A model generated the notes under the pieces. It had not been told where the DNA came from. It made no database searches and saw only the letters and a list, made by a program, of their open reading frames with translations. A stretch of DNA of 64,000 bases from Clostridium sp. CAG:343 (GTDB lineage Bacteria; Bacillota; Clostridia; TANB77; CAG-508). The stretch's first letter is position 1; every line of letters begins with the position of its first letter. The position numbers were made by a program, and so were the translations under genes. The DNA lies in the NCBI GenBank assembly GCA_000431335.1, contig FR888054.1, positions 96,307 through 160,306 on the forward strand. Reading direction: 5' to 3'. Below are positions 5,528-50,100 of the stretch, piece after piece.

Positions 5528-5821
5528 ATGAGTAATTTAAGAGAAGTTAATGATGATATTTTAAAGGATTGGTTAGATTTTAGAGAGGATGCTATTGCTT
5601 CGTTAGGTTGTGCAGAGGATAAAAAGCATTGGATTTATTTTGATGAGATTTCTGAGAGGATTTTGAAGAATGTTCCTGATCAGAATAGAAAGTATGTTGA
5701 GAAACAACTAAAACAGCTTGATGATAATTTCTTTGATTATATTTGCTATTGGAATGAGAAGTATTATAGGAATGGATTTTGTGATGGTTCTCAATTAGTT
5801 ATGGGATGTTTTTCTAATTAA
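5528..5821 (+). CDS. hypothetical small protein (97 aa)
   Basis: Clean ORF with RBS GGAGGT. A degenerate copy of its 3' end is found at 9990..10045. Confidence 0.4.
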   Translation: MSNLREVNDDILKDWLDFREDAIASLGCAEDKKHWIYFDEISERILKNVPDQNRKYVEKQLKQLDDNFFDYICYWNEKYYRNGFCDGSQLVMGCFSN

Positions 5822-5852
5822 GAATACCAGGAAAATAATTTTCCTGGTATTC
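5822..5852. terminator. bidirectional rho-independent terminator hairpin (gaataccagga/tcctggtattc)
   Basis: Perfect 11-bp inverted repeat lying between convergent genes. Confidence 0.5.
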
Positions 5853-5876
5853 CTATATTTATTCTCATATTATTTC

Positions 5877-25521: not shown

Positions 25522-26106
25522 CTATATTATCTTAAAAATTTTTACTATAAATAATAGTATTATAGTTATCATAGCCATATTTAGTCCAATATTATAATTT
25601 TTAAATTTTTTATTGCATATTTTACTATTTATATATACTTGTGAAAGTATATCATTTATATTGCTCTGTTTTGTTTGATTTTTTATTTTTTTGTTAAATT
25701 CTTCATAATTATATTTAGAAATACTTCCATAAAACACTAATGAATTTAGTGTTACCCCTGATTCTTTAAATTCTTTAATATTGATTTTTCCTTTTAGAGC
25801 ATATATTAATTTTATTATTGAAAAAATTGTATTAAAATAAAGTAATAACACCAATAGTCCTTTTGCTATTTTGGAAAAACTTAGACTGTTATTGTTTATA
25901 GTTGTTACTATTCTTTCGATAAAGTCAATATTTGAATCTATTAATATATATCCTAAAACAACTCCCATAAATGCAATAAGTATTGATATCTTTATATCCA
26001 CATTATTAATCCATTCTTTTATATTATCCAAGATATATTTCGCATTTTCAATTTTTTCTCCATATTCTTTTTCTTTATTTTCTGTTGACATCCTTATATT
26101 CTCCAT
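25522..26106 (-). CDS. 3-TM membrane protein (candidate PycTM-like effector)
   Basis: Three predicted hydrophobic helices. It lies immediately upstream of the cyclase on the same strand with a 13-nt gap. Confidence 0.4.
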   Translation of the reverse strand: MENIRMSTENKEKEYGEKIENAKYILDNIKEWINNVDIKISILIAFMGVVLGYILIDSNIDFIERIVTTINNNSLSFSKIAKGLLVLLLYFNTIFSIIKLIYALKGKINIKEFKESGVTLNSLVFYGSISKYNYEEFNKKIKNQTKQSNINDILSQVYINSKICNKKFKNYNIGLNMAMITIILLFIVKIFKII

Positions 26107-28281: not shown

Positions 28282-28376
28282 ATCAACATAATAATGCTTA
28301 AAAATAGCATTATCGCAACCAATTTTTAGGCATAAAAAAATCACTAAAACCGTTACAGTTCTAATGATATATGGTT

Positions 28377-28421
28377 TGGTTGCGGGGGTAAGACTCGAAC
28401 TTACGACCTTCGGGTTATGAG
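28377..28421 (-). other. partial tRNA-Met, 3' 45 nt (anticodon loop to CCA), att remnant
   Basis: The reverse complement reads ctcataacccgaaggtcgtaagttcgagtcttacccccgcaacca, closely matching the 3' half of the intact tRNA at 33009..33084. No 5' half is present. Confidence 0.55.
28407..28421. repeat. 15-bp direct-repeat core (attR-like)
   Basis: Exact copy of 5286..5300. Confidence 0.55.
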
Positions 28422-28595
28422 ATCACATGCGGGAGAATCTTTATATTTTCAGTATATATTTTTTATTTATATTCAATATTTTCATTAAATCTATACCAAT
28501 TATCACATAAAAAAAAGTAACTACCTAATTTCTCCCCTAAATATAATTTTTTTATCAATATTTCTATTAATAATACAGTAACATTTTATTCTATT

Positions 28596-33008: not shown

Positions 33009-33084
33009 CGCGGGGTGGAGCAGTTGGCAGCTCGTTGGGCTCATAACCCAAAGGTCGGTAGTTCGAGTCTACCCTCCGCAACCA
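33009..33084 (+). tRNA. tRNA-Met (anticodon CAT), initiator-type
   Basis: Cloverleaf is readable. 5' CGCGGGG pairs with 3' CTCCGCA and carries the C1:A72 mismatch typical of initiator tRNA. Anticodon loop CTCATAA, T-arm GGTAGTTCGAGTCTACC, and CCA is encoded. Confidence 0.8.
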
Positions 33085-33087
33085 ATT
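33037..33087. repeat. 51-bp direct repeat (attL, within the intact tRNA)
   Basis: gggctcataacccaaaggtcggtagttcgagtctaccctccgcaaccaatt. Confidence 0.6.
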
Positions 33088-33242
33088 CGAGAGTTTTTAC
33101 TTAAAGGGATATCCCTTTAAATGTAATTTTAATACAGAGATTTTACTATAAAAAGTAAGGTCTCTTTTTTGTATTCTATAAACACTTTCATACTCTATAG
33201 ATTTGCCCTTCAGCAAAATTTAAAGATTTGGAGGTGCATAAT

Positions 33243-33944
33243 ATGAGTAAAAAAGAACAACCAAATTATTATGCAATAATACCTGCAACAGTTAGGTATG
33301 ACACTAATCTAAAATATACAGAAAAATTATTATATGGAGAAATTACAGCATTATCCAATAAAAATGGTTATTGTTATGCTCAAAATAAATACTTTGCAGA
33401 TTTATATAATGTAACAGCCGTCTCAGTTAGCAGATGGATTTCACATTTGCAACAGCTTGGATATATAAAAACAGAAGTTATAAGAAATGAAAATAAAGAA
33501 ATAGTATCAAGAAATATTTACATTGTAGATATCCCCTATTATCAAAAAAATCAATACCCCTATATACAAAAAAGTATAGAGGGTATTAACAAAAATGTTA
33601 AAGATAATAATATAAAATATAATATAGATGATTTATTTCATTTAATTATAAATAATAGCAACGAAATTCCAGAAGAATTTTTAGCAATAATTGATAGGTT
33701 AGAATTTAATTATAAACCTTATATGCTTCAATATATGAAAGAAGATAAAATTAATATGGTAAAAAATGTTATATATGTTTTATATGATTTGTATAATAGT
33801 AATTTTCAATTTTTATTGCAAAATGTAAGTAGAGAATATTTAATAAATTTATATTTTTTAGCAGTGGATAATAAACCAGATACCTTATTAAATTATTACA
33901 AAAAATCTATCATAAATAGTAGTACAAACTATAAAAAAATATAA
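33243..33944 (+). CDS. RepA_N-type replication initiator protein
   Basis: N-terminus YAIIPATVRYD..L...EKLLYGEI..LS...GYCYA...YFADL..V...VSRWI..L...GYI fits the firmicute RepA_N pattern. Start set at ATG 33243 after GGAGGTG. Confidence 0.45.
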   Translation: MSKKEQPNYYAIIPATVRYDTNLKYTEKLLYGEITALSNKNGYCYAQNKYFADLYNVTAVSVSRWISHLQQLGYIKTEVIRNENKEIVSRNIYIVDIPYYQKNQYPYIQKSIEGINKNVKDNNIKYNIDDLFHLIINNSNEIPEEFLAIIDRLEFNYKPYMLQYMKEDKINMVKNVIYVLYDLYNSNFQFLLQNVSREYLINLYFLAVDNKPDTLLNYYKKSIINSSTNYKKI

Positions 33945-34164
33945 GTTTTACAGTAACAAAAAGTATGGCAAAATTAGCTTTTTTTCAAGAAGAAATTTGG
34001 CATATTTTAGAGTACAATGAAATGCATATATTTCAAGTGTTTTATAATTTTTATTACATGTTTTTTGAAGTGGAGGTAGGTTGCAATATCGGAAGATATG
34101 GCATACCTACCAAAAGGACAATTTATTGATAAACTTTTAGTTCGTATTGGAGGTGATGATAATT

Positions 34165-35058
34165 TTGAATTATTTTTTGAAAGATAAAGAGGAGATTTCT
34201 TTAATAAAATTTATTGCAAAATATCAATGTTTAAATGTAAATAGTGCAAAATATTTTTTTAGTAGTAGTAGATATTATAGAAATAGAATTAAAAATCTAA
34301 TAGATAAAAATTTTTTAAGAAAAATTAAGTGGATACTGGTATTAGGAAAATCAGGAATTCAATATGTAAAACTATTAAATTTTGAGTACAACAAATTGAA
34401 TAAAAACCAAAAATATAGAGAAAGACTATTAAAATTAAGTAACATAGCTACTTTTTATTATAATTGTAATACAGTTGATTTTATACCATCATTTGCAATA
34501 AAAGATAAAACAATACTTACGACAACAGGTAGAAGATTTATAGGAATATTTAATATAAATGGATTTGAATACTTGGCTTATCAAATTTTTAAAGAACATG
34601 ACAATAGATATATTGAATCTGTAGCCTTTGATATACAAAAAGAAATGAAATATAGCAATATTATTATTTTAGTAAATGATATAAACAGAATAGATTTCAG
34701 TTATTTTGCCTTTGGGAAGAATCAAATATTAGTAATTGAAGATAATGATATTAATAGAGAAAAATTAAAATATTTACATAGTATGAGATGGAAAGAATTA
34801 ATAGATAAGTATTATAGTAATGTTCATTTATCTGAATATAGCTTTTGTGAATATTCAAATAATAAAGATAAATTTATTAATACTTTTTACTTTATAGATA
34901 CTGAAAAGATTAACAGATTTAGATATTTTATAAATGAGAATTCCACTAAAAGAACATATATTATTTGTGATGCAGAACTGGAAACAAAATTACGAAAAGA
35001 ACTACCTGATGCTAACTATTGTATGGTGGATTTTGAAAAATATATTGATAAAGAGTGA
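34165..35058 (+). CDS. replication-relaxation (Replic_Relax)-like protein
   Basis: N-terminal winged-helix-like pattern (EISLIKFIAKYQCLNVNSAKYFF...RNRIKNLIDKNFL). The start is uncertain; TTG 34165 lies 9 nt after GGAGGTG. Confidence 0.35.
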   Translation: MNYFLKDKEEISLIKFIAKYQCLNVNSAKYFFSSSRYYRNRIKNLIDKNFLRKIKWILVLGKSGIQYVKLLNFEYNKLNKNQKYRERLLKLSNIATFYYNCNTVDFIPSFAIKDKTILTTTGRRFIGIFNINGFEYLAYQIFKEHDNRYIESVAFDIQKEMKYSNIIILVNDINRIDFSYFAFGKNQILVIEDNDINREKLKYLHSMRWKELIDKYYSNVHLSEYSFCEYSNNKDKFINTFYFIDTEKINRFRYFINENSTKRTYIICDAELETKLRKELPDANYCMVDFEKYIDKE

Positions 35059-35414
35059 AGATATTATTGTTGTTAGTTGGAGAGTAATAACTTAGATTAC
35101 ATTATAAGCAGAGTGTTTCGAGATTTAGTGCCACTCGGCTATAATTTGGAAAACATATATCAAATTATAAAGATTTTTAAATTGTGATTTTAATGTTGAT
35201 TATACATAAAAAAAGTTAAAAATAGAGATGGTAAAATTGAAGAATGCTGGTAATGAAAATTTAAATATTACAATCTTTTTGCTATTATATGGAACTATTT
35301 TAAAAAATATTATAAACTTTGAAAGGATATATAAAGTTAATGGACTCATATAAATAGAAAAATAAATGTTAGTTACAGATTTTATTATTACAAGACATAG
35401 GAAGGGGAAAATAA

Positions 35415-35951
35415 ATGGAAGAATTAGTGGTAAAGGCTAAGAAAGGAGATAAAGAAGCTTTTACACAAATAGTGTTAATATTAAAAGAAGATTTATACAA
35501 GATAGCAAAAACTAGAATTACAAATGAAGCAGATATAGAAGATGCCATTCAAGAAACAATGATTGAAGCATATAAATCTATAAAAAAGATAAAGGATGTA
35601 AGTAAAATAAAGCAATGGATAATTAAAATATTGATTAATAAATGCAATAGAATATATAGAAGAAAATACAAAAAGGACATTTCCATAGACGAATATAATT
35701 TAGAAAAATATATTATTCTAAATGGATATAAAGATGTAGAAAACGATTTAAGTTTTTACTCTTTATTAAAGAATCTAAATTATAAAGAAAGAATAATATT
35801 AACATTATATTACATGGAAGAATATTCAGTAAAGGAAATTAAAGAAATAACTAAAATGAACGAAAACACAATAAATACTTGTTTGCATAGGGCAAGAAAG
35901 AAAATAAAAGAAGATATAGGAGGAGAATTTGTTGATGAAAGAGTCAAGTGA
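35415..35951 (+). CDS. sigma-70 family ECF-type RNA polymerase sigma factor
   Basis: Region 2 (DAIQETMIEAYKS...QWIIKILINKC) and region 4 (ERIILTLYYMEEYSVKEIKEITKMNENTINTCLHRARKKI). Confidence 0.65.
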   Translation: MEELVVKAKKGDKEAFTQIVLILKEDLYKIAKTRITNEADIEDAIQETMIEAYKSIKKIKDVSKIKQWIIKILINKCNRIYRRKYKKDISIDEYNLEKYIILNGYKDVENDLSFYSLLKNLNYKERIILTLYYMEEYSVKEIKEITKMNENTINTCLHRARKKIKEDIGGEFVDERVK

Positions 35952-37095
35952 GGAAAAAATCAAACAAATTTTAAAAAGCAAAATAAATATTCCAAGTGGG
36001 TATGTTGATGCAATTAATACAGCGTTCATTAAAAAGGGAAAAAGTAATCATTTTATAAAAATATTAACAACTACTTGTGCAGGAATTATATTAACCAGCG
36101 GAATTGTTTTGGCAGGATATAATATCTATCAAAAAATATGGAAAGAACCAGAGATGGTTAAAAATAGCGATATAGAAAAGTCATTAGAAAATAAAGAAAT
36201 CTCAAAAGAGGATCAGGAGAAGTTAATTACAACTGAAGAGGCAAAGAAAAAATCATTAGAAATATTAAATGCACTTGGATATGAAGAATTAAAAATTGAA
36301 GAAGCAGAACTTAAAAATTCAAATAATACAATTTATTTTGATATAAAAATAGTAGGCAATAACAAGTTTAATGTTTTAATTGATGGTAAAAACGGAAAAT
36401 TAATTGGAATTAATAACTTAAATAATATTTATAATGATATAAGTCAAATATCTGAAATGGAAGCAAAAGAAGATGCTGTATATATAAGTGAAAATTTAAA
36501 ACTAGATAACGAAAAATATGAATTAAATTATTGTAAAGAAGAAAGCAGTTGTTATGGAGAAAAGCAATATAAAATATGGGTAGCGAGTTTTAATAAAAAG
36601 TATGATGAAAGATATAATCCCTATGACAGTATGAAAATTTACTTTTATGAAAGCAATAAAATCATAAAATTAGATTCTGTAATAATCAATAAAGATGAGA
36701 ATTTTCAAAATAATGAAATAAAAATTAGTGAAGATGATGCAAAAAGCATTTCAATAGAAAAAGAAAAACAATTAAGTCAATTAGAAATTATTGATATAGC
36801 CTCTGAATTAGAAATAAGAAAAATGAATACATATATTTTCAAATTAGAAAATAATATTGATGATGCTAATATAGATGAAAGTAACGAAGAAACTACTATA
36901 TATAAAACAGAAAATATTACGCGAAATGTATGGATAGTGAGAATAAAGCACAATAAGCCGGAAAATATAAATTTTAGCACAAGCCTAGAATATAATAAAC
37001 AAATGGATAAAAAATATTATATTGATGCAACCACAGGTGAAATAATTGGAGGAGAAGACTTTTTTGAAAAAATGAACAATCCATTGTATAACTAA
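35935..37095 (+). CDS. single-pass membrane protein, putative anti-sigma factor (large extracytoplasmic domain)
   Basis: Overlaps the sigma gene. One TM helix is predicted at about residues 48-70, with a short cytoplasmic N-terminus. Confidence 0.4.
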   Translation: MKESSEEKIKQILKSKINIPSGYVDAINTAFIKKGKSNHFIKILTTTCAGIILTSGIVLAGYNIYQKIWKEPEMVKNSDIEKSLENKEISKEDQEKLITTEEAKKKSLEILNALGYEELKIEEAELKNSNNTIYFDIKIVGNNKFNVLIDGKNGKLIGINNLNNIYNDISQISEMEAKEDAVYISENLKLDNEKYELNYCKEESSCYGEKQYKIWVASFNKKYDERYNPYDSMKIYFYESNKIIKLDSVIINKDENFQNNEIKISEDDAKSISIEKEKQLSQLEIIDIASELEIRKMNTYIFKLENNIDDANIDESNEETTIYKTENITRNVWIVRIKHNKPENINFSTSLEYNKQMDKKYYIDATTGEIIGGEDFFEKMNNPLYN

Positions 37096-37101
37096 TAAGC
37101 C

Positions 37102-37133
37102 AAGAAGGAGCTGAAATACAACTCCTTCTTTTG
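37102..37133. terminator. bidirectional rho-independent terminator (aagaaggag...ctccttctt + T-run)
   Basis: Perfect 9-bp stem followed by TTTT. Confidence 0.5.
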
Positions 37134-37156
37134 GTAGAAAGCTAGAATATGGTTAA

Positions 37157-37624
37157 TTAACTAATATAGTACCAGTATTCAATAAAAGCTCGTCTGTAAT
37201 ATCCAGGCGGATTTGAGATGCTACTTGCATCAAAGAAGATTTGGACTTGTTGACCGTAACTTACTGGGCAAGTAACCTCAAAGTCAACAAGACCACTTCT
37301 ATTATCATCCTTTGTAATACTAGCATTTCCAATTGCCCCACCATATGCATACCTTATTTGTGCAGTTAATCTAATGGGGCTTACAGCAGCATGAGCATCT
37401 TCTCCATAAAAATGCCCTACTATGTGTAAAGTACCTGTTCTTTTGATTGTTTTTACCTGCGTTAAGTTGTTATCTGTCATGTGCATAGAACCAACATAGG
37501 TTTTAGTTGAACTTGACCAATCTTCGGCACCAGCTGCAAATGCAGGAACTGCAGATGTTATTATCATTGCACACATAAGTACAAAACTAATAATAAACCG
37601 TGTTGCTTTATTTTTTACCTTCAT
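37157..37624 (-). CDS. small secreted protein, paralog A (signal peptide; conserved C-terminal ...NPPGYYRRAFIEY)
   Basis: N-terminal signal peptide with an AFAAGA cleavage region. Shares blocks with 38704..39195 (DNNLTQVKTI / DNLTPVKTI; GQQVQIFFDASSISNPPGYYR / GQRIQVYWDISSQYNPPGPYR). Locally higher GC. Confidence 0.5.
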   Translation of the reverse strand: MKVKNKATRFIISFVLMCAMIITSAVPAFAAGAEDWSSSTKTYVGSMHMTDNNLTQVKTIKRTGTLHIVGHFYGEDAHAAVSPIRLTAQIRYAYGGAIGNASITKDDNRSGLVDFEVTCPVSYGQQVQIFFDASSISNPPGYYRRAFIEYWYYIS

Positions 37625-37812
37625 AATAAAATATCCTCCTTAAAATGCATCAGTAGTATTTTTCTAGCTCTCTACCTGTATCTATTCAAAAAGGATAGAT
37701 ATTAATTATATATATAACTAGAACAGAAAAAAGTAAAAAAAGTAAAAAAAAGTAAAAATGTGAAAGATAAAAGTATATAAAAGGACTCTTATATTATAGG
37801 GGAAGTGAGAGT

Positions 37813-38535
37813 ATGACAAATGTTCTAGTAGTAGAAGATAATTTTTATCAATCAAAGCAAATTATTAATTATTTATCTCAAAGAAATAAAGAATTAAAAT
37901 TATATAGTATGGTTTATTCTGGAGAAGAAGCATTAGAAATAATAGAAGAACAAAAAGTTGATATTATTATACTAGATTTAAAATTAAAAGGGATGAACGG
38001 AGTAGATGTTATTAAAGAAATTGAATACAAAAAGATAGAAAAATATAGAAGTTCCATAATTGTTGTTTCTGGAGATTATTCTATGATAAGACAAGTTTAT
38101 AATAGTGATTACATATATAGATGCTTTTTAAAACCTTTTAATTTTAATGAGATTGAAGAAAGTATAGAGAAAATTATCTGTGAAAATAATTATGAAATGG
38201 AAACAGATGTAAAATCAAAAATAAACAAAGAATTGAAAAAATTAAAATTTAATTTTACATATAAGGGAACAAAATACTTATCTGAATGTATATATCAAAT
38301 ATATAAATCAAACGAATCGGATGTAGATAATTTATCTAAAGAGTTTTATCCTATTGTGGCAGAAAAATATAATAAATCGGTTAATACTATTTATGGAAAT
38401 ATAAAGCAGGCAATTAATGCAATGTTTTTTGATTGCGAAGAGAGAATATTAAAAGAATATTTTAAATATAGTTTTGTCGTTAAGCCAAAGCCAAAAGAAA
38501 TTGTTTATATAATATTAAATAAATTATATGGATAA
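37813..38535 (+). CDS. response regulator: REC + Spo0A_C-like domain (second copy in the window)
   Basis: REC motifs VLVVEDN...IIILDLKL. The C-terminus GTKYLSECIY...NIKQAINAMFF...KPKPKEIVYIILNKL is Spo0A_C-like. Confidence 0.55.
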   Translation: MTNVLVVEDNFYQSKQIINYLSQRNKELKLYSMVYSGEEALEIIEEQKVDIIILDLKLKGMNGVDVIKEIEYKKIEKYRSSIIVVSGDYSMIRQVYNSDYIYRCFLKPFNFNEIEESIEKIICENNYEMETDVKSKINKELKKLKFNFTYKGTKYLSECIYQIYKSNESDVDNLSKEFYPIVAEKYNKSVNTIYGNIKQAINAMFFDCEERILKEYFKYSFVVKPKPKEIVYIILNKLYG

Positions 38536-38703
38536 ATTTACTTTTTTTTACTTTTTCCGTGCCGTTATGGCAAAATATTTTATAATGTATAATGTATACT
38601 GCATATGAATTACATAGTGCAACATATGATATTAAAATGGCAAGTGTCATTTTAATATAACAAGTATGTGAGAGATATTTTTTTCATAATGGAGGTATAG
38701 AAG

Positions 38704-39195
38704 ATGACAAGATTTAAAGCAACATTTCTATCACTTTTTCTAGCATTAGGTATGATACTAGGAACAACTACAGCTTATGCTGCTGAAACACGGTCAGGAA
38801 CAGAAGTTTGGCATTTAGGAGAGGCAACAGTTGGCTCTTTTGTAGTTGAAAATGATAATCTTACACCTGTGAAGACAATAGGAGATGATGGAAAGTTATT
38901 TATTTGGACGCAATTTTCACGTGCAGATAGTTCATCGTATCCACCTATTGTTGTAACAGTAGAATTAAGAGATTATGATACAGGAGCAGTTCTTGACAGA
39001 GTTCAATACAAAGAAGGCGAAACAATAGATCGCGTTTTATATTATCCTAATGCTAAAAAAGGACAAAGAATCCAAGTGTATTGGGATATTAGCAGTCAGT
39101 ATAATCCACCTGGACCATACAGAAAAGCAAATATAACATATGGTTATATACTTTATCAAGATGAAGTTCCACCTGAAGGACCAGGAACTGACTAA
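38704..39195 (+). CDS. small secreted protein, paralog B
   Basis: Signal peptide ending TAYAAE. Paralogous to 37157..37624 and GC-richer than its surroundings. Confidence 0.5.
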   Translation: MTRFKATFLSLFLALGMILGTTTAYAAETRSGTEVWHLGEATVGSFVVENDNLTPVKTIGDDGKLFIWTQFSRADSSSYPPIVVTVELRDYDTGAVLDRVQYKEGETIDRVLYYPNAKKGQRIQVYWDISSQYNPPGPYRKANITYGYILYQDEVPPEGPGTD

Positions 39196-39390
39196 AAATA
39201 CTCTTTGAAAAAATCAAAAATTAAGTAACTATAAATTTTCAATGCTCTCACATACTGGGGACTAACTTGTTTAGTCCCCATCATTAAATAAAGTAGAAAA
39301 ATGCTTTACTTTTCTTGATGTTTAATATATATTGGTTAATATAATAAAGAATACTGAACAAATGTTAATTTTTTTGGAGGAGGAAAACTG

Positions 39391-40584
39391 ATGATAAAAT
39401 TAAGAATAAAAATTATAGGAATTATATTAATAATGATTTGTACTTTACATAGCATAGTTTTAGCTTCATCATCTACTACTAGTTTAAAAAATGAGCAAGC
39501 TGAAAATAACAAAAAAATAAATGAAGCACAATCAGAATTAAAAGACATTCAAGTAGAAAAATCAGATACAATAAAACAAGTAGATGAGTTAACCTCACAA
39601 ATAACAGAATATCAAAAACAAATTAGCGAAATAGATAGTAAAATCGAAGAATTAGATAATAAAATACAAACTTCACAAAAAGAAATAGAAGAGGCACAAA
39701 AGAATTATGAAAAAAAAGAAGAATTATTAAAAGCAAGATTAGTTGCTGTTTATGAATCGGGTGAAACTTCTTATTTGGATGTTTTATTAGGCTCAGAAAG
39801 TTTAATTGATTTAATTTCAAACTATTATTTAGTATCTGAAATTGTGATAAGTGATGAAGAATTATTGGAAGAAATACAAAAACAAAAAGAAAATATAGAA
39901 AATTCTAAACATGATTTGGAAGTAAGCCAAGAAGAAATGAACACATCAAAAGAACAAAAACAAAATGTATCTGAAGAATTACAAAAGTCAAAAACAGAAA
40001 AAAATACATATGTTGCAAAATTATCAAATGATGAGAAAGAAATACAAGAACAAATAGAAGATTTAAACCAAGCTAATAAGTCAATAGATGATAAAATAAC
40101 CGCAATTATAGCATCTAGCAATAATACTAGCAGTAACAATAACTCTAACAATGGAAATATTAATGTAAATGTAAATGGATCATCCTCAGCAGGATTTATA
40201 AAACCAGTTAATAGTTATGTCACAACTGGAATGTATTATTCAAGTGGGCAATATCATGGTGCGGTAGATTATGGAGCAGCAGGAATAAATGGATTACCTG
40301 TATATGCTGTTGGAGATGGAGAAGTAATCCTAGCAGAAGCATTAACTACAAGTTATGGAAATTATATTATTATAAAACATGATAATGGACTATTTACTTT
40401 ATATGCACATGGACAAGCAGGCTCAATTGCAGTTTCAAAAGGGCAAAGAGTTTCAAAGGGACAACAAATTATGAGAGTAGGAAATACAGGAAACTCGACG
40501 GGACCACATTTGCATTTTGAAGTAAGACAATATCCAGGATTATATAATAACAGAGTAGCCCCTTTAGATTATATACCTAGATAG
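39391..40584 (+). CDS. secreted M23-family metallopeptidase with N-terminal coiled coil and N/S-rich linker
   Basis: Signal peptide, a roughly 200-aa heptad-rich region, and an M23 catalytic region with HGAVDY...YAHG...GNTGNSTGPHLHFEV (the H.H motif). Confidence 0.75.
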   Translation: MIKLRIKIIGIILIMICTLHSIVLASSSTTSLKNEQAENNKKINEAQSELKDIQVEKSDTIKQVDELTSQITEYQKQISEIDSKIEELDNKIQTSQKEIEEAQKNYEKKEELLKARLVAVYESGETSYLDVLLGSESLIDLISNYYLVSEIVISDEELLEEIQKQKENIENSKHDLEVSQEEMNTSKEQKQNVSEELQKSKTEKNTYVAKLSNDEKEIQEQIEDLNQANKSIDDKITAIIASSNNTSSNNNSNNGNINVNVNGSSSAGFIKPVNSYVTTGMYYSSGQYHGAVDYGAAGINGLPVYAVGDGEVILAEALTTSYGNYIIIKHDNGLFTLYAHGQAGSIAVSKGQRVSKGQQIMRVGNTGNSTGPHLHFEVRQYPGLYNNRVAPLDYIPR

Positions 40585-40660
40585 AGAATAATAGTATTGA
40601 TATTTCAAGACGAAATAACTTAGAAATCAGAACAAATGCTTATATGATAATCCTAATAAT

Positions 40661-40873
40661 TTAATTATAATAGAATACATCTCTATGACCAGACAGAGAT
40701 GTGTTTTTTTTGTTGTCTAATCTTCTTATTGTAACAACTAGAGCTACAAATAAGGCAATAGCGACAACAGTTACCATTGCAAGTTTACCAATTAGTATGT
40801 AAATAAAAAGTACATAAACTTGTTCAAATAACATATACATCTCCCCGTTCATAAAGAAAGCGACACTCCACAC
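40661..40873 (-). CDS. small membrane protein (about 60 aa)
   Basis: One long hydrophobic helix followed by a basic tail. ORF only. Confidence 0.25.
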   Translation of the reverse strand: MWSVAFFMNGEMYMLFEQVYVLFIYILIGKLAMVTVVAIALFVALVVTIRRLDNKKNTSLSGHRDVFYYN

Positions 40874-41208
40874 ACTGTTTTACTCATTTTCTTTTATTAT
40901 TAGACTTATTTGTTCGTTGTAAATCAAGCAAACAAGTCTATTTTTTTAAATAAAAATGAATACAAAAAATTAATAATAAAAATTTTTTGCCATACTAAAA
41001 TTGCTTAAAAATGCCTAAATATCAATAAAAATTTTTTTTTAGGCGTGCTTATTGAAATTTACAAAAAAAGGTTATAAAATTATATACGAGAAAGGAAGTG
41101 ATTGGAAAAAAGATTAATAAAAATATAATATAGTGTTTCAAAAAAATTTGCCCTTCCATAAGGCAGTTTATAGTAAATGTGCCTAATCTATATATGGAAG
41201 TGATATAA

Positions 41209-41406
41209 ATGAATGAAAATTTTAATGAAAAAATTGGTTTAAATGTTAGTGAAGCAGCTAACATGCTCGGCATTAGTAAAAACTTAATGAGTGAATTAAT
41301 AAAGTACCCTGATTTTCCTTGCATTAAGTTCAAAAGAAGAATTGTCATTAACAAAAAGAAATTACAGGAATGGTTTGATAAAAATTCTGGAAGATTTTTT
41401 GTATAA
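41209..41406 (+). CDS. xis: excisionase-family HTH DNA-binding protein
   Basis: LNVSEAANMLGISKNLMSELIK...FPCIKFKRRIVINKKKLQEW. It lies immediately upstream of int. Confidence 0.55.
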   Translation: MNENFNEKIGLNVSEAANMLGISKNLMSELIKYPDFPCIKFKRRIVINKKKLQEWFDKNSGRFFV

Positions 41407-41499
41407 CATTGCTTTCCTCTATATTTTGCCCTATAATAGAGAATATTAAATATTGTGCTTTTACTTTTAATGTTCTCTATCTTGAATGGAGGCAAAGTT

Positions 41500-42741
41500 A
41501 TGGTAAAAACATCGCAAAACCAATCCGTAAAGAAAAAAAGAAACACCAGAGGAATGGGCTCTATTAGACCCAAAAATGGTGGATATGAAGGAAGAATAAC
41601 AATAAAAGCAAATGGCAAATCAAAACAAATATCTTTATTTAACAAAGATAAGAGAATTCTAGTGCAAGAAATGATAAAAGCAAAACAAGAAGCAAATGAC
41701 AATGAATATGTAGAAAAAGACAAAATAACTTTAGAAGAGTGGCTAAAGAAATGGATTCGTATTCATAAAAAACCATTTGTTAAGCCTAGAACTCTACAAG
41801 GGTACATTGAAAAAATCAAAACAAACATTATTCCCTATTTAGGTAACTATCCTATGCAATCGCTAGATAGATTAATTCTTCAAGAATATTTTTCAGATTT
41901 AACAACGGGAAATGAAAAAAATGGCATCAAAAAATACTCTCCTAAAACAATTAAGGAAATAAAAAGTATTCTAAATATGGCTTTTACAGATGCTGAAATT
42001 GATAAAATAATAAAATTTAATCCTATTCCAACAATTCGTACACCGAAAGTGCAAAGACAGAAGAAGAAACCTATTATATCACCAGCAGAGCAACAACAAC
42101 TAATAGAAATATTATTGTCTGAAACAAATGGACTATGCTATATTTTTATAATGAATACAGGTGTTAGACCAGGAGAAAATGGTGGGATGAAATGGAAACA
42201 TTACAGCTATGAAAATGCTAATGTAAAAGTAAGAGATAATTATGGAAAAGTAACCTATTATGATGATAATTTTGAAAAAATCGAATCTACTTATGAAGAA
42301 AAAGACTTGAAAACACCATCTAGTTATAGAAACATACCATTGCAAAATTGGTTAAATAATTTAATGCATACATATATGCTATATGTTATGAAACAAAAAG
42401 GATATACCAATAAAAAACAGCTAGATGATGAGTATATTTTTATGAATAGTTTAGGACATGCTTTAAGTAGTGATTATTTATGGGATACACTTGATAAGAT
42501 TTTAAAAAGACATAATTTTAAACATTTAAGTGTTTATCAATTAAGGCATTTATTTGCGACAAGATGCATTGATGTAAACATACCTGTAAATCAAATCAAA
42601 CAATATTTAGGTCATGCTTTAGCGAGTACAACAATGGACTATTATGTTGAATATGATGAAGATACGAATAAAGCTGAAATTGAAAAATTAGAACCCATCA
42701 ATAATATGCAAATAGTACCTAAAATTTTAAAGGGAATGTAA
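41500..42741 (+). CDS. int: tyrosine recombinase / integrase
   Basis: Start at ATG 41500 after GGAGG. The C-terminal catalytic region has R..LRH..A.......Y.GH...TT..Y. Confidence 0.8.
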   Translation: MVKTSQNQSVKKKRNTRGMGSIRPKNGGYEGRITIKANGKSKQISLFNKDKRILVQEMIKAKQEANDNEYVEKDKITLEEWLKKWIRIHKKPFVKPRTLQGYIEKIKTNIIPYLGNYPMQSLDRLILQEYFSDLTTGNEKNGIKKYSPKTIKEIKSILNMAFTDAEIDKIIKFNPIPTIRTPKVQRQKKKPIISPAEQQQLIEILLSETNGLCYIFIMNTGVRPGENGGMKWKHYSYENANVKVRDNYGKVTYYDDNFEKIESTYEEKDLKTPSSYRNIPLQNWLNNLMHTYMLYVMKQKGYTNKKQLDDEYIFMNSLGHALSSDYLWDTLDKILKRHNFKHLSVYQLRHLFATRCIDVNIPVNQIKQYLGHALASTTMDYYVEYDEDTNKAEIEKLEPINNMQIVPKILKGM

Positions 42742-42893
42742 TATAGTGTCTGTCCTTAAAAATACAGTTTAAGGGACATGAAAGGGACATTGATAAATTT
42801 ATATAAAAAATCGAAATATTAAATACTTTCGAAATGGTTGCAAGAGTAAGAATATATAAAAATTTTAAAAGATAAAAATTGGAAGAAATGGTC

Positions 42894-42944
42894 GGGCTCA
42901 TAACCCAAAGGTCGGTAGTTCGAGTCTACCCCCCGCAACCAATT
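42894..42944. repeat. 51-bp direct repeat (attR): displaced 3' part of tRNA-Met
   Basis: One mismatch to 33037..33087. Confidence 0.6.
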
Positions 42945-42952
42945 ATATCAAG

Positions 42953-42984
42953 CATTTGCTAGCAATAGCAAATGTTTTTTTTTT
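42953..42984. terminator. rho-independent terminator (catttgcta gcaa tagcaaatg + T10), native tRNA terminator
   Basis: Perfect 9-bp stem, 4-nt loop and ten T residues. Confidence 0.65.
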
Positions 42985-43054
42985 ATAATCCTATTGTTAA
43001 TTAACATAAAACATGATATAATATATGCCATGGAAAATATATGGAGGAAAATAT

Positions 43055-45742
43055 ATGAAAAAACTAAATAAAATAACTTTAAAAGAACTTTTAGACTCTA
43101 CGGACTTATTAATGCATTTATCTGATATATTATATTTTTGTGATGATGTTGAAACAATTAATGAATTCGTTAATTCTACTAGAAAAAATTCTGACTTAAA
43201 CTATAAAGAAATTAAAGATTTTTTAATTAAACACGAAAACAAAATAAATAAACAAAAATTATTATTATTAATTGTAAAAAATTATTCTGATAATATACAA
43301 TTAATAGATTCTATATTAAAAGATAATACCTATAAATCAAAAAGTAATAATTCTGAAACTCTGGAATTAATAATACAGAAACAAAAGCAAGAACAAAATC
43401 TAAATATAGCCAAAAAAATAGGTAAAGGTATGGATGAATCTTTTGCATTCTATTTCTATAATACAGATACCAATAGATATGACATAAATATAATTGATTC
43501 AAAAGAATTAATTGATGGTATTAAAATAAACAGTTCCGCTAATCTAAAAAGATTCAAAGAAATAAACCAAGATTTCATGGAATCTGATAAAACCGAAACT
43601 GTAGGAATTGAATATCTATTACAATCAATCGTACTAACAGATTTTAATAATATATTTCCTAATGAACAAATTGGAGATAATATGAGAACTTTACTTTTGG
43701 AAAACCAAATCCTAAAAAACAATGTTAAAACCAGAAAAGAAATAGAAAATTTAAAAAACCAAAATTATGATGAATATGAAAATTTAATAGAAAACAATAA
43801 ATTTCATGATATATTATCAGATATGAAAAATTTACTAGAAAAATATATAAAATATGTAGATATTGACAAGCTTCTTGCAATTAGTGCATATAGATTTGAG
43901 GAAAGTCTAGAAAATGAATTCATATCTATAGAAAATGCACCTGCTATAAAAGAAATTTTAAATACAATTATAAAACATACCAAAAATAATAAAACATTAA
44001 CTTTATCTCTACAAGATAGAAAAAATTCTTATGATCTTAAAGACATAGAATATTCATTAACTGATATAATTAACTGTATAAATAGATTTACAGACGACTC
44101 ATATATAAAGAAATCACAAATAGAAGAATATAAAAATAAAATAAATTCAGAAGAACTTACTTTATTTGATTTAGATCCTCAATATGTAAAGATTTGTTTT
44201 TCACCTTCTGAATTAGAAAATATAGCTAAATTAAATAGTCAAAACTTACAATATGTATCTACAATATTACAATGGAATAAAGATAAAATATTAAATAATA
44301 TTAAATTTCAAAAAAATTGCCCTGTTGAGTTATTGAAAGATTTTATGACTAAAAAAATTATTTATCCAAATGATATAATATCATTATATAAAGATAATAT
44401 AATAGATATAGAATATATAAAAAATTTAAAAGAATATTCAAATTTTTCTAATGAAATTTCCGCTTCAGAACTAATTTCTTTATATGATAATTATAATAAA
44501 AATAAATCTGAAGAAAATAATTTAATAAACTATACTAGATATTTAGATCTTTATAAAGAAATATTACTAAATGATAATCCTAAAGAAACCGAAAAATATT
44601 CACTAAACTTTATGGAGCAAATGATTGAAAATTATGACAAAAGACATATAGATACACATATAACTCAATTAGAAGAATTTTATAAACAAGGATTATTAAC
44701 ATTAAATACTATTATAGAATGGAATGATCCTTCTGTAATAGAAACTTTTTTAACAGACTTATATAAAGAAAATATTATTCAATTAAATGATGTAAAAAAA
44801 TTCGTAAAAAACGGTAACTTACCTTTCGAATATATAAAACAATTAGTATGGGAAGAAAATATTAATTATGAAGAAAGACTAAAACTCTTAGAAGAAGGTT
44901 GGATCCCTGAAGAAGAAATCTTTGAATTATACTCAAAGGCTCTTATTAGAGAGGATGATTTATTAAAATTATCACAAAAATCAATTATAAGTAAACAAAA
45001 AACACTTGATATTATAAATAATACTCAATTACAAGATTTAGAAAAATATTCTAATATTGTATTAGTAATAGGTGATAAACTCCAAAAAATAAAAAGAGAT
45101 GATAGCTTGTATTTTAATGAAGAAAAAAACACTTCAAGCAAAAGCTCTAAACCTAAATTAATGATTGACCCAAATGAAAGAGAGTCCCTTTTTAGTTTGT
45201 TAAAAGCTGGTAAACCAAATAAAGTAGAAATATCAGAGACTAGTCCTTTCTATAATTATGAATTTTATATTATCCCTGATGAAAGTGGAAAAGTAAATTT
45301 AAATAGTGTTATAATTGCAGAAAGAATTTATGAAGAAAAAGAAGAGCATATAAAAAATCCTAATACAACCATTAAATATGCTACTGATAACGCTACATAC
45401 TTCTTCAAATATAAAGATTTAATGGTTCTAAGTAATTACTTAAAAAAAGATGATGCAATAAAAGAAACAAAGAATATAATCTTTAAAGCAAATCACACAC
45501 TTGCAAACGATAAAAGGAATGGACATTGGGCTGCTAGCGTAATTTATGGAGTTGCTAAAACTATGTTATCATCTGACTTAAAGGAATATAGCAAAGATAA
45601 TCAAAGAAAAATAATAGTTGAAAAACTTAGTAAAGTATATACTTACGATGAATTAGAAAAAATTTTAGATAAAGGATCTTCAATAGATTCCGGAGATTCT
45701 ATTTGTGAAATTATAGATTATGATGACTCTGACTCTAGATAA
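43055..45742 (+). CDS. large hypothetical protein (896 aa), N/K/E-rich, predicted helical, no recognisable domain
   Basis: Start at ATG 43055 after GGAGGA. No catalytic motifs found by eye. Confidence 0.5.
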   Translation: MKKLNKITLKELLDSTDLLMHLSDILYFCDDVETINEFVNSTRKNSDLNYKEIKDFLIKHENKINKQKLLLLIVKNYSDNIQLIDSILKDNTYKSKSNNSETLELIIQKQKQEQNLNIAKKIGKGMDESFAFYFYNTDTNRYDINIIDSKELIDGIKINSSANLKRFKEINQDFMESDKTETVGIEYLLQSIVLTDFNNIFPNEQIGDNMRTLLLENQILKNNVKTRKEIENLKNQNYDEYENLIENNKFHDILSDMKNLLEKYIKYVDIDKLLAISAYRFEESLENEFISIENAPAIKEILNTIIKHTKNNKTLTLSLQDRKNSYDLKDIEYSLTDIINCINRFTDDSYIKKSQIEEYKNKINSEELTLFDLDPQYVKICFSPSELENIAKLNSQNLQYVSTILQWNKDKILNNIKFQKNCPVELLKDFMTKKIIYPNDIISLYKDNIIDIEYIKNLKEYSNFSNEISASELISLYDNYNKNKSEENNLINYTRYLDLYKEILLNDNPKETEKYSLNFMEQMIENYDKRHIDTHITQLEEFYKQGLLTLNTIIEWNDPSVIETFLTDLYKENIIQLNDVKKFVKNGNLPFEYIKQLVWEENINYEERLKLLEEGWIPEEEIFELYSKALIREDDLLKLSQKSIISKQKTLDIINNTQLQDLEKYSNIVLVIGDKLQKIKRDDSLYFNEEKNTSSKSSKPKLMIDPNERESLFSLLKAGKPNKVEISETSPFYNYEFYIIPDESGKVNLNSVIIAERIYEEKEEHIKNPNTTIKYATDNATYFFKYKDLMVLSNYLKKDDAIKETKNIIFKANHTLANDKRNGHWAASVIYGVAKTMLSSDLKEYSKDNQRKIIVEKLSKVYTYDELEKILDKGSSIDSGDSICEIIDYDDSDSR

Positions 45743-47142: not shown

Positions 47143-50100
47143 TTATTTTATATAATGTTTTTTTCTCACTATATAACTTACTCCTGCAATTGTAGCTCCT
47201 ACTCCAACAGATGCTATTATAATCCAAAATGCTACTGAACCTGTATATGGTAATTTAAATGGTAATTTTTCTAAAACTCCTTCATTTTTATTACTATTGC
47301 TATTGCTTTCATTTTCTTTCACAATTTCATTTATTTGTCCAGTTACAACATTTGAAATATTAATCTTACTTAAATCTGTTTTATTTCCAGCTGCATCTTC
47401 TATATTTTCTGTTATATTATTGATGGTCATTTTGCCAATATCTTTTTCTGATATTGTATATGTATATATTATAGAATTTACATATTCTCCTACAGTATAG
47501 TCGCTTTCTAAATTTCCTTCTGCTTTGTTTCTTCCAAATTTAATATTTAATACAGGTACTTCTTCAGCTGCTATATACTCATTTCTGTTTTTCATATTTT
47601 CATCTTCAAAAACGACTTTAATTTTAACTTTATCTCCTGCCTTATAATTTTTTCCTTCTTCTGCCATTACATAAATTGCCTTTATAGTTGATTTTGAATA
47701 ATCAATCACTATTGGCTCATCCATATTTTCTTCATTCATTACTGTCAAATTTGCTTCATTCCCTGATAAATCTCTACATCCACTTACTTGGATTTCAAGA
47801 TATCCCTCTTTTATTTTGTCATTTATTTCTAAACTAGCTGTATACTCTTTGCCACTACCTTCTACTGTAGCCACTTGTCCTCCCATTGTAACTGTTGGCA
47901 ATTCTGCTAAATCTTCATTTGAAGTAATATTAACTTTTACAATATCTCCTTTATTTAAATAATAACTATCTTTTTCTATTTCTGGGACTACTGTTATCTC
48001 TGGTGCTGTAGTATCTGCTACAACTTCACCAACTAATAAATTTATTCCGTTTGGAACTGTTTCTAAATTGCCTGTTAATTCATCAGACATTTCGTCTTGC
48101 TCTGTTACATCATCTCCTACAAATGCTTTAGTATTGCTAGAAATATATTCTTCACTTAGTTCTTTGCTTTCATCTTCTGATTCATCATTAGATAAAACTT
48201 CCATTTTTTCATTTTCTATATCTATATTTTCTTCTGTTTCTTCAATAGTAAAATCTTCTTCTTCTTCATTATTAACTGTTAATATAGTATCCATTTTACC
48301 AGTATCATCTGTTAAATTTCCATCATTTAGTCCTACTATTTTTAATATTCCATTATCTCCTTCTTGCACTTCATATTCGTATCTAATAGCTGTATTATTG
48401 TCTTCAAATCTAATAAATTCTGGATTTTTAACACTTGAATTGTTACCAAATTCTAACTGTAGTTCTGGTACATTTCCTTTTACTTCTTCTGAAAATGCAA
48501 TCTTTATACTTATTTTTTCCCCTTGTTTATATTCTTGTTGTCCTTCATCTTGATCAATTGTAACTTTTTGAATAGTAGGTATATTTAATGGCTTTACATT
48601 TACTTTTATTGTCTCTTTAACATCTTCATTTGTTGGGCTACTTATTTCTATAGTTGCTTTTCCCTCTGAAATAGCAAGTATTTTATATGCTCCTGTCTCT
48701 TCATCCTTATACATTCTTGCAATATCTTCATCTGATGATGTAATAATTGGTTCTTCTGTTGCATCTATTTCTCCTTCTATATCTTGACTATTTGCACTTG
48801 ATTTTAGAAGTTTAGATACTGAATTTGCAATTATATATTCCTCATCTTCTAATGATTCTTTTAGCGTAATATCTTGCTTACTTGTATAAATTTTAGTAAT
48901 AGACTTCTCTACCTTTACATCACATCCATCACTTATACCATCGATTGTAACAGTTACCTTTGCAGTTCCTTCTTTTACAGGTATAACTTCTACATTTCCA
49001 TAACTATCCTCTTTTAATTTTACAATATTTTCATCTGAACTTTTCCACTCAGCGTCTTTATTATCTAAATTTGTGTTTACTTTTAAATATGTATATTTAT
49101 CCGGTAAGTTAGACAAATCATAGTTTATTGTATTTTCACTTAATTCAACATATGCTTTATCTATAATTTCAATATTAAATCTAGCTGTTTTATATTTATT
49201 ATCTTCACTATTCTCATCTAGCATGCTACAACATATAACTATTTTGCTACCTGTTACAGCATTTTCATTAACTTTAATATTAGCACTTCCATCATTATTT
49301 TGAGTAATAGTTACCATATCTGCTTGCCCTTCAGCATACCATCTAATTTTATTTTGAATACTTTCATCTTTAAAATCTTCATAATCGTCATCTTTTAAAC
49401 TTTTAAACTTTAATGTAAAAACATCATTTTTATACATTCTATTATAATTATTAAAGCTCATTTTCTGAATGCCTGTAGCATCAACTACATTTAATGAACC
49501 ATCTCTGTTAATATCTCCTCTTTCTTTTTCTTCTTCTGTAAATTGAACCAAGTTTACTATTGCTCTTTGTACCTCAAACGAATCCACCTCTGTAATAAAT
49601 CCATCTTTGTTAACATCTCCTAAAATATTTTTGTTTACTTTCTTTGCAGTAATTACTTCAAATCCAGTAGTAATATTATTTTTATCTATTATTTTTAATT
49701 TTATTTCTCCCACTTTTTCTTCTTCATTATTTTCATTTAGGTATGTTACTTTTATTACCACACTACCGTTTAAAGCTGATAGTTCATTTTTTGATTTAAT
49801 TGAAATTCCATCTTGACTTTTAGTAACATTTACTAATTCTTCTCCTTCAGTAACAGATAATTTTAAATTGTCAATTGAAACTAATTTATTTTTATCGTCA
49901 TATACCTTAAATGTTTCTGAACTTCCTATTTGTAATGAATTTACTCTTTTATTTATAATAACTTTTAAAGCTGTTAAATCATTAGCGTCAATAGTATCAT
50001 TTCCATCAACATTAGCATATTTTTTTTGATCATCTGTAAGTTCTTGTAATTTAGATAAATATCTTTGTAATAACAAATAGTCGTATTCATTAATATATCC

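Follow-up and report, generated by a model that had tools for sequence, protein, structure and literature searches.

An integrative island in the initiator tRNA gene of a gut Clostridium and its candidate regulatory cascade

The 64,000-nucleotide stretch of Clostridium sp. CAG:343 DNA analyzed here (contig FR888054.1, hereafter the window) contains a 9.86-kb element that sits in the gene for an initiator tRNA, with 11 genes between its bounding repeats (Table 1). Genes for a phage-type replication initiator and a conserved protein termed ORF2 are found at the left end, whereas genes for an excisionase (Xis) and a tyrosine integrase are located at the right end. The intervening cargo codes for an extracytoplasmic function (ECF)-type sigma factor and a candidate anti-sigma partner, a response regulator with a Spo0A_C-type DNA-binding domain, two paralogous secreted proteins, a predicted peptidoglycan hydrolase, and a small membrane protein. 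The host is an uncultured, low-GC Clostridium of the human gut. The sequence sources name it as Clostridium sp. CAG:343 or as metagenome-assembled genomes of Clostridia or Clostridiaceae, and contigs that carry the element reach 1.75 Mb.

Table 1. Features of the element and its integration site, given as positions in the window
Feature	Position	Strand	Evidence or remark
Initiator tRNA-Met(CAT), integration target	33009-33084	+	ARAGORN; Rfam RF00005, 59.7 bits
attL core	33037-33087	+	51 nt common to attL and attR
Element-supplied terminator hairpin for the rebuilt tRNA	33136-33165	+	terminator scan
Replication initiator, HTH_36/DnaD-like, phage-type	33243-33944	+	PF13730, 1.9e-12; phrog_270, 1.4e-23
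ORF2, conserved backbone protein	34165-35058	+	487 homologs, 59-84% identity
Predicted ECF-type promoter of sigma/anti-sigma operon, TGAAA-N18-GACTCATAT	35320-35351	+	conserved motif
ECF-type sigma factor, regions 2 and 4 only	35415-35951	+	PF04542, PF08281
Candidate anti-sigma, single-pass membrane protein	35935-37095	+	17-nt overlap with sigma gene
Bidirectional terminator hairpin between convergent anti-sigma and sec155	37103-37130		RNA fold -16.2 kcal/mol, z = -4.4
sec155, secreted paralog A, 155 aa	37157-37624	-	signal peptide; small secreted family
AAAAAAGTA(A) repeats, 3.4 copies, candidate regulator operator	37727-37758	+	TRF; abuts regulator promoter
Predicted ECF-type promoter, second copy, TGAAA-N18-GACTCTTAT	37761-37792	+	21 nt upstream of regulator start codon
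Orphan response regulator, REC + Spo0A_C-type DNA-binding domain	37813-38535	+	Pfam
Inverted copy of AAGTAAAA repeat, upstream of sec163 promoter	38536-38556	-	motif search, TRF
sec163, secreted paralog B, 163 aa	38704-39195	+	signal peptide; AlphaFold2 pLDDT 76.7
Secreted M23 peptidoglycan hydrolase (predicted), PcsB-type coiled coil + M23	39391-40584	+	PF24568, PF01551
Small membrane protein, called with 57 aa in assemblies	40661-40834	-	translation
Xis, HTH_17 excisionase-type (recombination directionality factor)	41209-41406	+	PF12728, 1e-08
Tyrosine integrase, 413 aa	41500-42741	+	PF00589, 7.5e-17; PF14659, 1.3e-11; phrog_1, 1.2e-54
attR core	42894-42944	+	partial copy of tRNA 3' end
Original tRNA terminator, 3' of attR	42950-42977		terminator scan

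Integration site, backbone and spread

The target is the sole tRNA that ARAGORN recognizes in the whole window. Bacterial initiator tRNAs are distinguished by a C1:A72 mismatch and by three G:C pairs in the anticodon stem. Both hallmarks can be read from the tRNA sequence, where the three pairs (GGG/CCC) close the anticodon stem. A repeat search revealed a 54-nt direct repeat with two mismatches (33034-33087 and 42891-42944), of which the 51 nt from position 33037 onward carry a single mismatch, and 0.00 chance occurrences of its 21-nt core are expected in the shuffled window. An earlier note, made from the sequence alone, had described an intact initiator tRNA together with a 51-bp direct repeat with one mismatch, and ARAGORN, Rfam, and the repeat search all agree with this description.

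Direct repeats formed by the 3' segment of the tRNA, a tyrosine integrase gene at one end, and the empty sites described below mark the element as an att-delimited tRNA island. The 3' part of the rebuilt tRNA, from 33037 onward, is supplied by the element, which results in a G6:U67 pair in place of G6:C67. Position 33075 is a T in attL and a C both in attR and in all three of the empty sites described below. This pattern shows that the T is derived from the element and suggests that the crossover took place within 33037-33074. The predicted attP junction reads …GAAGAAATGGTCGGGCTCATAA…ACCCTCCGCAACCAATTCGAGAG….

Metagenome contigs were scanned for empty sites with a query in which the 5' part of the tRNA is joined to the right flank. 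An empty attB was found in three contigs (L027, L028, and L029), and in the alignment the tRNA of these contigs is intact, with the original terminator and the flanking gene for a protein of 896-901 amino acids directly after it. The left flank of the window is also present in L027 and L028. Both flanks of the first of these contigs share 99.7% identity with the window, and this contig therefore represents a conspecific strain. The earlier note had proposed the empty attB in related strains as a check on its claim that a discrete element is integrated in tRNA-fMet, and both the att structure and the empty sites support that claim. No strain was seen that has these genes at the locus and lacks the 51-bp repeat.

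The backbone assignments of the earlier note fared unevenly. Profile matches confirm Xis and the integrase at the right end, where the Xis protein scores 20.8 bits against TIGR01764 (E 3.7e-4), under the cutoff of 28.8. The RepA_N call at the left end fails, as the sole Pfam match of the initiator is HTH_36, its PHROG matches are to replication initiation and DnaD-like families, and it is 48% identical to the replication initiators of Staphylococcus siphophages. Also unsupported is the Replic_Relax-like label (PF13814) for ORF2, because this protein has no phage homolog and lacks matches to Pfam families even at E <= 10 and to NCBIfam, PHROG, and PADLOC models at the thresholds used. The AlphaFold2 model of ORF2 (pLDDT 65) predicts an N-terminal winged helix, and its PDB matches are to winged-helix domains only. 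A protein comparison with phage and plasmid records returned one weak match, to a plasmid-encoded hypothetical protein of Clostridium argentinense, and no relatives were found in IMG/VR.

At a related locus (L033), the tRNA-Met, initiator, and ORF2 genes share ~90% DNA identity with the window up to position 35105, beyond which the cargo is wholly different (a LysR protein, a bile-salt hydrolase, and an ABC transporter). At L034-L039, ORF2 forms the left end of an island whose other end holds a large serine recombinase. ORF2 thus behaves as a backbone gene that is common to islands with other cargo and other recombinases. We also considered whether 3,164-bp contigs carrying ORF2 are small plasmids. 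Such a contig (L032) has no terminal overlap and begins inside rep, indicating that it is a fragment.

No relaxase, VirD4/FtsK coupling protein, or VirB4 was matched among the 11 proteins (Pfam, NCBIfam, PHROGs), and no packaging or phage structural genes were found (Pfam, PHROGs). The earlier description of the cargo as regulatory and secretory in place of phage-structural is supported by these searches, whereas its term "mobilisable" is unproven, with neither a relaxase nor a known transfer function found. PADLOC assigns the cargo to no defense system, and neither iteron-like nor oriT-like repeats were conspicuous in the backbone. Megablast comparison of the element DNA with phage (50,697 records) and plasmid records gave no match. 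Judged by its gene content, the element falls outside the classes of integrative and conjugative elements, relaxase-bearing integrative and mobilizable elements, prophages, and satellites of the phage-inducible chromosomal island (PICI) type.

Across 25 independent assemblies (L001-L017, L020, L022-L026, L046, and L047), the element is 99.94-100% identical, compared to 96.9-99.9% for its flanks. The same contrast is seen whether the loci are retrieved via element genes or via a flanking AAA_18 gene. The element is therefore ~10-fold less diverse than the DNA around it, which points to recent spread. Proteins identical to the integrase and sec163 occur in ~5,000-6,400 blocks of public assemblies, and the flanks were always the same in the contigs that were read. 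In the 5-10 kb contig bin, element genes account for 1559/4966 and 2122/6378 blocks versus 344/6637 for the flanking gene, an excess that population polymorphism or extra copies would produce in assembly graphs. An attP junction was not found, and current excision is inferred.

One contig (L046; 10,044 bp) consists of the element alone. The promoter region before its tRNA (L046:1-75) is unlike that of the window and of all other loci, and the contig stems either from a second tRNA-fMet locus or from a join made at the tRNA sequence during assembly. Inactivating changes are seen in some natural copies: the integrase is shortened to 395 amino acids in L015, where the attR core is no longer an exact match; rep is split into segments of 82 and 73 amino acids in L012; and sec163 is shortened to 158 amino acids in L008 and L023. 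A close copy of either secreted paralog is present in none of the GTDB species-representative genomes, suggesting that the representative of the host species lacks the island or that the region is missing from it.

The near identity of the element across strains and its frequent assembly as a separate contig of ~10 kb might also be expected of a PICI-like phage satellite, wherein a helper phage would induce excision and replication and package the 10-kb genome, and the regulatory cargo would be accessory. The size is typical of satellites, and the phage-type integrase, Xis, and DnaD-like initiator would fit as well. However, Pfam and PHROGs reveal no terS, capsid-remodeling, packaging-interference, head, primase, or helicase genes. 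There is also no repressor divergent from int, which instead is located at the far end and is co-directional with the cargo. Considering also that IMG/VR contains neither an ORF2 relative nor the attP junction, and that none of the phage records matches the element DNA, we regard a satellite as quite improbable.

Another way to reconcile the clear evidence of recent spread with the lack of relaxase and secretion genes is a relaxase-less, iOriT-type mobilizable element that uses a co-resident conjugative element, for which ORF2 or the gap between rep and ORF2 would provide an oriT or an accessory factor. Islands that carry only an oriT are reported to be common (bioRxiv 10.64898/2026.01.13.699239), and the retention of ORF2 in islands with different recombinases is consistent with such a role. 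The backbone, however, has no recognizable oriT and no nick-site-like inverted repeats that stood out, and no conjugative element was seen in the window. We consider this explanation unlikely.

The cargo and its candidate regulatory sites

The sigma factor scores 77.2 bits against TIGR02937 (cutoff 42.9). Its candidate anti-sigma partner has a short cytoplasmic segment at the N-terminus and a single membrane helix, followed by a PepSY/YpeB-like ectodomain of ~320 amino acids. The 460 homologs of this partner mostly adjoin a sigma gene, several carry PF03413 or PF14620, and P0153 and P0160 are fused to a sigma domain. The earlier gene calls for an ECF-type sigma factor and for a membrane protein whose gene overlaps that of the sigma factor are confirmed.

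Alignment of the regions upstream of the sigma genes of four lineages and of two regulator genes revealed the motif TGAAA-N18-GACTC(T/A)TAT at fixed spacing. TGAAA-N17-19-GACTC has two matches in the window (35320 and 37761) versus 0.33 expected. In other loci, the extended motif is found only before sigma operons and before the L031 regulator gene; the sigma orthologs concerned are those of L031, L040 (two operons), and L042. This arrangement looks like an autoregulated ECF promoter with the regulator gene as a second target. The motif was not found upstream of sec155, sec163, the M23 gene, or the small membrane protein gene, and so the proposal that the cargo is under its own sigma factor could hold only indirectly. 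A cascade that leads from the sigma factor to the regulator and then to the secreted-protein genes is suggested by this distribution of promoters.

The regulator was correctly called as a REC-Spo0A_C protein by the earlier note. As read from its translation, the receiver keeps the acidic pocket, the phospho-acceptor Asp, and the conserved Lys, and its closest PDB matches are the receivers of Spo0F and Spo0A. We rejected the possibility that the protein is a Spo0A ortholog, because it scores 68.7 bits against TIGR02875 (equivalog cutoff 200), and because the Spo0A signature helix SRVERAIRHAIEVAW is replaced by VNTIYGNIKQAINAMF in an alignment with 1FC3/1LQ1. The regulator has probably changed its DNA specificity relative to Spo0A.

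Two further motifs may mark the targets of the regulator. The sequence AAGTAAAAAAAAGTAAAA occurs in the window only at the regulator promoter and, inverted, at 38536-38553. It is present twice in L031, the other regulator-bearing locus, and in no locus without a regulator. At L030 and L044, where no dedicated regulator was found beside the secreted-protein genes, a perfect Spo0A box (TGTCGAA) is located 125-165 nt upstream of these genes. In these sequences such boxes are rare, at about one per 5-30 kb, and the element has none. Spo0A boxes with near-repeats cover L044:880-1053 and L030:690-825, and those of L044 adjoin a consensus TTGACA-17-TATAAT promoter.

Gut phages carry homologs of the spo0A effector domain, and manipulation of sporulation has been proposed for the truncated spo0A genes of such phages (PMC10294663). 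The regulator might likewise be a Spo0A mimic or a phosphate sink by which the island manipulates host sporulation. The full-length match to the Spo0A_C domain, the similarity of the receiver to those of Spo0F and Spo0A, and the 0A boxes of the secreted-gene relatives are in keeping with this idea. However, the replaced recognition helix, the TIGR02875 score far under the cutoff, the lack of a 0A box in the element, and the nonsense inactivation of the regulator in some natural strains leave a Spo0A mimic as a very doubtful explanation.

The secreted paralogs share 35% identity (E = 5e-18), and their genes have a GC content of 34-38% compared to 22-25% for the background, which confirms the earlier description of GC-richer secreted paralogs. 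They were also said to be arranged divergently around the regulator gene. This is correct for sec155, but sec163 is located 3' of the regulator gene on the same strand. The family is small and has no Pfam domain. It gives eight word-index matches, and among 1.84 billion representatives it accounts for 169 clusters at 50% identity. Long "homologs" that also appeared in the representative search were discarded as spurious partial matches to DUF11/RHS repeat proteins.

Behind its signal peptide, sec163 is predicted to form an eight-strand jelly-roll beta-sandwich. Foldseek returned only generic matches, including TNF/C1q-like proteins, Bacillus exosporium protein ExsFA, the lambda gpJ tip, viral capsids, and CBM6, and thus no function can be named. 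TM-scores are <0.5 against PDB entries, and the best in the viral library, at ~0.5-0.65, are to small uncharacterized phage proteins.

A perfect 12-nt inverted repeat (AGTATGTGAGAG at 38663-38674 and CTCTCACATACT at 39245-39256) flanks sec163, with one arm in the 5' untranslated region (UTR) and the other just before the terminator hairpin. This 12-mer is found nowhere else in the window, and both arms are kept in L044, whose protein is 59% identical. The arms may serve in 5'/3' UTR pairing or as paired operator sites. Inversion of the sec163 segment was considered and is unlikely, because 20/20 assemblies examined share one orientation.

The predicted M23 hydrolase carries a signal peptide, an N-terminal coiled coil (PF24568, 2.6e-17, residues 99-171), and a C-terminal M23 domain (PF01551, 9.4e-27) whose HxxxD and HxH motifs are intact (HGAVD and HLH). 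This is the layout of PcsB and EnvC, although the NCBIfam models for these two proteins match it under their cutoffs, and no ftsEX genes are present within the element. The small membrane protein, a gene call of the earlier note that is also confirmed, has a 70%-identical copy beside a sigma/anti-sigma pair in L040.

Parts of the cargo are also found in related Clostridia. Among GTDB species representatives, the secreted family is present at two loci only. The order of genes in L031 is as in the element, with identities of 81% for the sigma factor, 66% for the anti-sigma candidate, 73% for the convergent sec155, and 48% for the regulator. A RicinB-lectin plus Amidase_6 hydrolase fills the M23 slot of this locus, an ABC-2 transporter adjoins, and no homolog of the element's integrase was detected there. 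Sigma, anti-sigma, and secreted-paralog genes occur together in L030, where the contig ends beside the secreted gene, and in L043, which is chromosomal. L044/L045 carry a secreted paralog and M23 pair downstream of a chromosomal methyltransferase gene, whereas L040, also chromosomal, has two sigma/anti-sigma pairs and the small membrane protein without secreted genes. The cargo appears to be a captured, older chromosomal gene cluster that relatives keep outside recognizable islands. Its genes belong to known families, and we did not find this arrangement described.

The earlier note had suggested that this could be a mobilizable bacteriolysin, bacteriocin, or cell-surface-remodeling locus. In the bacteriolysin or bacteriocin reading, the M23 protein would be exported and kill related clostridia, the small membrane protein would provide immunity, and the sigma factor would drive the killing genes. 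The signal peptide and the intact motifs of the M23 domain agree with this view, as do the presence of zoocin A and LytM among its PDB matches, the adjoining small membrane protein gene, and the lectin-targeted amidase in the hydrolase slot of L031. Bacteriolysins of the lysostaphin, zoocin A, and enterolysin A type carry a C-terminal wall-targeting domain. The M23 protein has none, with no SH3b match (Pfam, NCBIfam), and instead combines a PcsB-type coiled coil with a C-terminal hydrolase in the manner of a division hydrolase. In addition, no fem-like immunity gene was matched in the element, no sigma promoter motif precedes the M23 or secreted-protein genes, and the secreted-M23 pair of L044 is chromosomal, with a Spo0A box before the secreted gene that precedes M23. 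Thus, the bacteriocin reading is the weakest part of the earlier note. The earlier gene call of a coiled-coil M23 peptidase is confirmed, but the architecture differs from that of bacteriolysins, and a bacteriolytic M23 protein is possible without being favored. We give the bacteriolysin locus as a whole little chance.

Proposed cascade and neighboring elements

We think it probable, though well short of certain, that the element is a site-specific island with a phage-like int-xis-rep backbone that carries a captured regulatory cascade. In the model we propose, the tyrosine integrase would recombine a core of ~38 nt (33037-33074), Xis would direct excision, and the DnaD-like initiator and ORF2 would maintain or replicate the excised circle. 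Because transfer and packaging genes are lacking, the element would have to move between cells with the aid of a helper element or through homologous recombination in its flanks.

As suggested by its position and topology, the membrane anti-sigma protein would hold the ECF sigma factor until the PepSY/YpeB-like ectodomain receives an envelope signal. The freed sigma factor would then transcribe its own operon and the regulator gene from the conserved TGAAA-N18-GACTCWTAT promoters. More tentatively, the regulator, once phosphorylated by a host kinase, might bind the AAGTAAAA repeats and control the genes for both secreted jelly-roll proteins, and perhaps also that for the PcsB-type M23 hydrolase. 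Regulation of the regulator gene by the sigma factor seems reasonably supported by the promoter motif, whereas the step from regulator to secreted-protein genes is offered as a hypothesis that has few lineages as its basis. The likely outcome is that the wall or the surface of the cell is remodeled as it passes into stationary phase or sporulation.

Several observations weigh against this interpretation. The anti-sigma protein is a candidate assigned by position and topology, and it matches no anti-sigma domain model of the zf-HC2 or RsgI_N type in Pfam. The link between the regulator and the secreted-protein genes consists of motif co-occurrence in two regulator-bearing lineages plus 0A boxes in two lineages without a regulator, and the contig of one of the latter (L030) ends ~0.8 kb upstream of its secreted-protein gene. 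Furthermore, the AAGTAAAA repeats could be A-tract UP elements instead of operators. The element encodes no cognate kinase for the regulator. In L003, L006, and L024, a single substitution creates a nonsense mutation that divides the regulator into segments of 173 and 59 amino acids, and such natural alleles indicate that the regulator is dispensable in the gut.

The account of mobility is subject to similar reservations. No function could be assigned to ORF2, neither a helper element nor a route of transfer was identified, and neither an attP junction nor a circular form was found, including in a scan of viral contigs (IMG/VR). Contigs of ~10 kb such as L046 are linear and have att ends. In addition, the assemblies in which the element shows low diversity were picked by exact protein match, which favors identical copies.

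A broader proposal, which we put forward tentatively and judge to be rather unlikely, is that a self-contained island cascade, comprising an envelope-sensing anti-sigma protein, an ECF sigma factor, and a Spo0A-fold regulator with new DNA specificity, took over a secreted jelly-roll and hydrolase module that related Clostridia keep under Spo0A. If true, a single horizontal step, the gain of the island, would rewire a surface program at the onset of sporulation. The element itself is ordinary, yet it is clean, highly prevalent, and apparently recently spread in a common human-gut Clostridium. It extends the cargo of such islands beyond resistance or virulence genes to a regulatory cascade. It also offers a predicted promoter motif for an uncharacterized ECF group, a candidate operator for a Spo0A-fold paralog, and a predicted link of a new family of small secreted jelly-roll proteins with cell-wall hydrolases.

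The tRNA-fMet locus is a hotspot for at least two unrelated elements, which could be useful for strain typing and for the study of element competition. The second of these splits the same tRNA-fMet at its anticodon loop, and its core is approximately CTCGTTGGGCTCATAA. Its left junction is seen in L018:6660-6740, L019, and L021 and its right junction in L005:1-1560, where it and the island are arranged in tandem and its end is formed by a 508-amino-acid integrase. ARAGORN recognizes no tRNA at either junction read, and another copy of the initiator tRNA is presumably present in the genome. Within the window, a second tyrosine integrase gene (26910-28103, + strand) is followed ~270 nt beyond by a partial tRNA-fMet-like 3' half (28376-28425, - strand), which looks like what is left of the att site of a further integrative element. 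Between this half and the tRNA, the region at 28.4-33.0 kb differs from strain to strain.

Further to the left, the region 5877-26106 looks like a defense island. It includes genes for a DEAD helicase (5877-9386), an AAA_21 ATPase (12325-13557), an Mrr_cat nuclease (15491-17059), a Schlafen-like helicase (17071-19032), a DnaC/IstB-like ATPase, an IS256-type transposase fragment (23813-24571), and a Pycsar-like pair formed by a cyclase (24768-25508) and a PycTM effector (25522-26106). Directly right of attR, the 896-amino-acid flanking protein (43052-45742) has no Pfam match, and its gene is unusually divergent, with 83% DNA identity in L029 versus 97-99% elsewhere. At 4 kb to the right of the island, a gene on the minus strand (47143-52974) codes for a giant surface protein of 1,943 amino acids (1,726-1,943 among strains) with LRR, PEGA, Peptidase_C39-like, dockerin, and Ig-like domains.

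Comparison with known systems

The element resembles tRNA-integrated islands of tyrosine recombinases in its use of the 3' part of the tRNA, its duplicated core, its Int and Xis proteins, and the existence of an empty site in a conspecific strain. A conserved backbone, exchangeable cargo, and the lack of transfer genes of its own are shared with tRNA islands and with iOriT islands (bioRxiv 10.64898/2026.01.13.699239), although no oriT or helper was identified for this element. Unlike classical tRNA islands, it targets an initiator tRNA, carries a phage-type initiator and the conserved ORF2, and has as its cargo a regulatory cascade in place of virulence, resistance, or defense genes.

Like SaPI/PICI elements, it has a length of ~10 kb, a tyrosine integrase, an excisionase-type helix-turn-helix protein, a phage-like initiator, and very low diversity. 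However, it lacks genes for packaging or capsid redirection, a primase-helicase, and an int-divergent repressor, and more than half of its length is taken up by regulatory and secretory cargo.

The sigma unit is similar to SigW-RsiW, SigV-RsiV, and SigM systems in that the gene for a two-domain sigma factor overlaps that for a single-pass membrane partner, and in that its own operon is preceded by a bipartite promoter, whose -35 element is TGAAA and whose -10 element is short and contains GC. The -10 element is GACTC here compared to CGTC/CGTA in those systems. The N-terminus of the element's anti-sigma candidate is short and matches no domain model, and the ectodomain is PepSY/YpeB-like. Also distinct are the second predicted target, a gene for a Spo0A_C-type regulator, and the location of the unit on a mobile element.

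This regulator combines a REC domain with a Spo0A_C DNA-binding fold, as does Spo0A, but its candidate site is the AAGTAAAA repeat and not TGTCGAA. The phage-borne spo0A homologs (PMC10294663) provide a second example of the Spo0A_C fold on a mobile element in a gut Firmicute. Those copies consist of the effector domain only, whereas the regulator of the island keeps a full-length receiver.

Finally, the M23 protein resembles the FtsEX-coupled proteins PcsB and EnvC in that a signal peptide and a long coiled coil (PF24568) at the N-terminus precede a hydrolase domain at the C-terminus, which is of the LytM/M23 type as in EnvC. The M23 motifs are degenerate in EnvC and PcsB uses a CHAP domain, whereas the motifs of the island protein are intact. 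Its gene, with no ftsEX nearby, resides on an island beside a gene for a small secreted jelly-roll protein.

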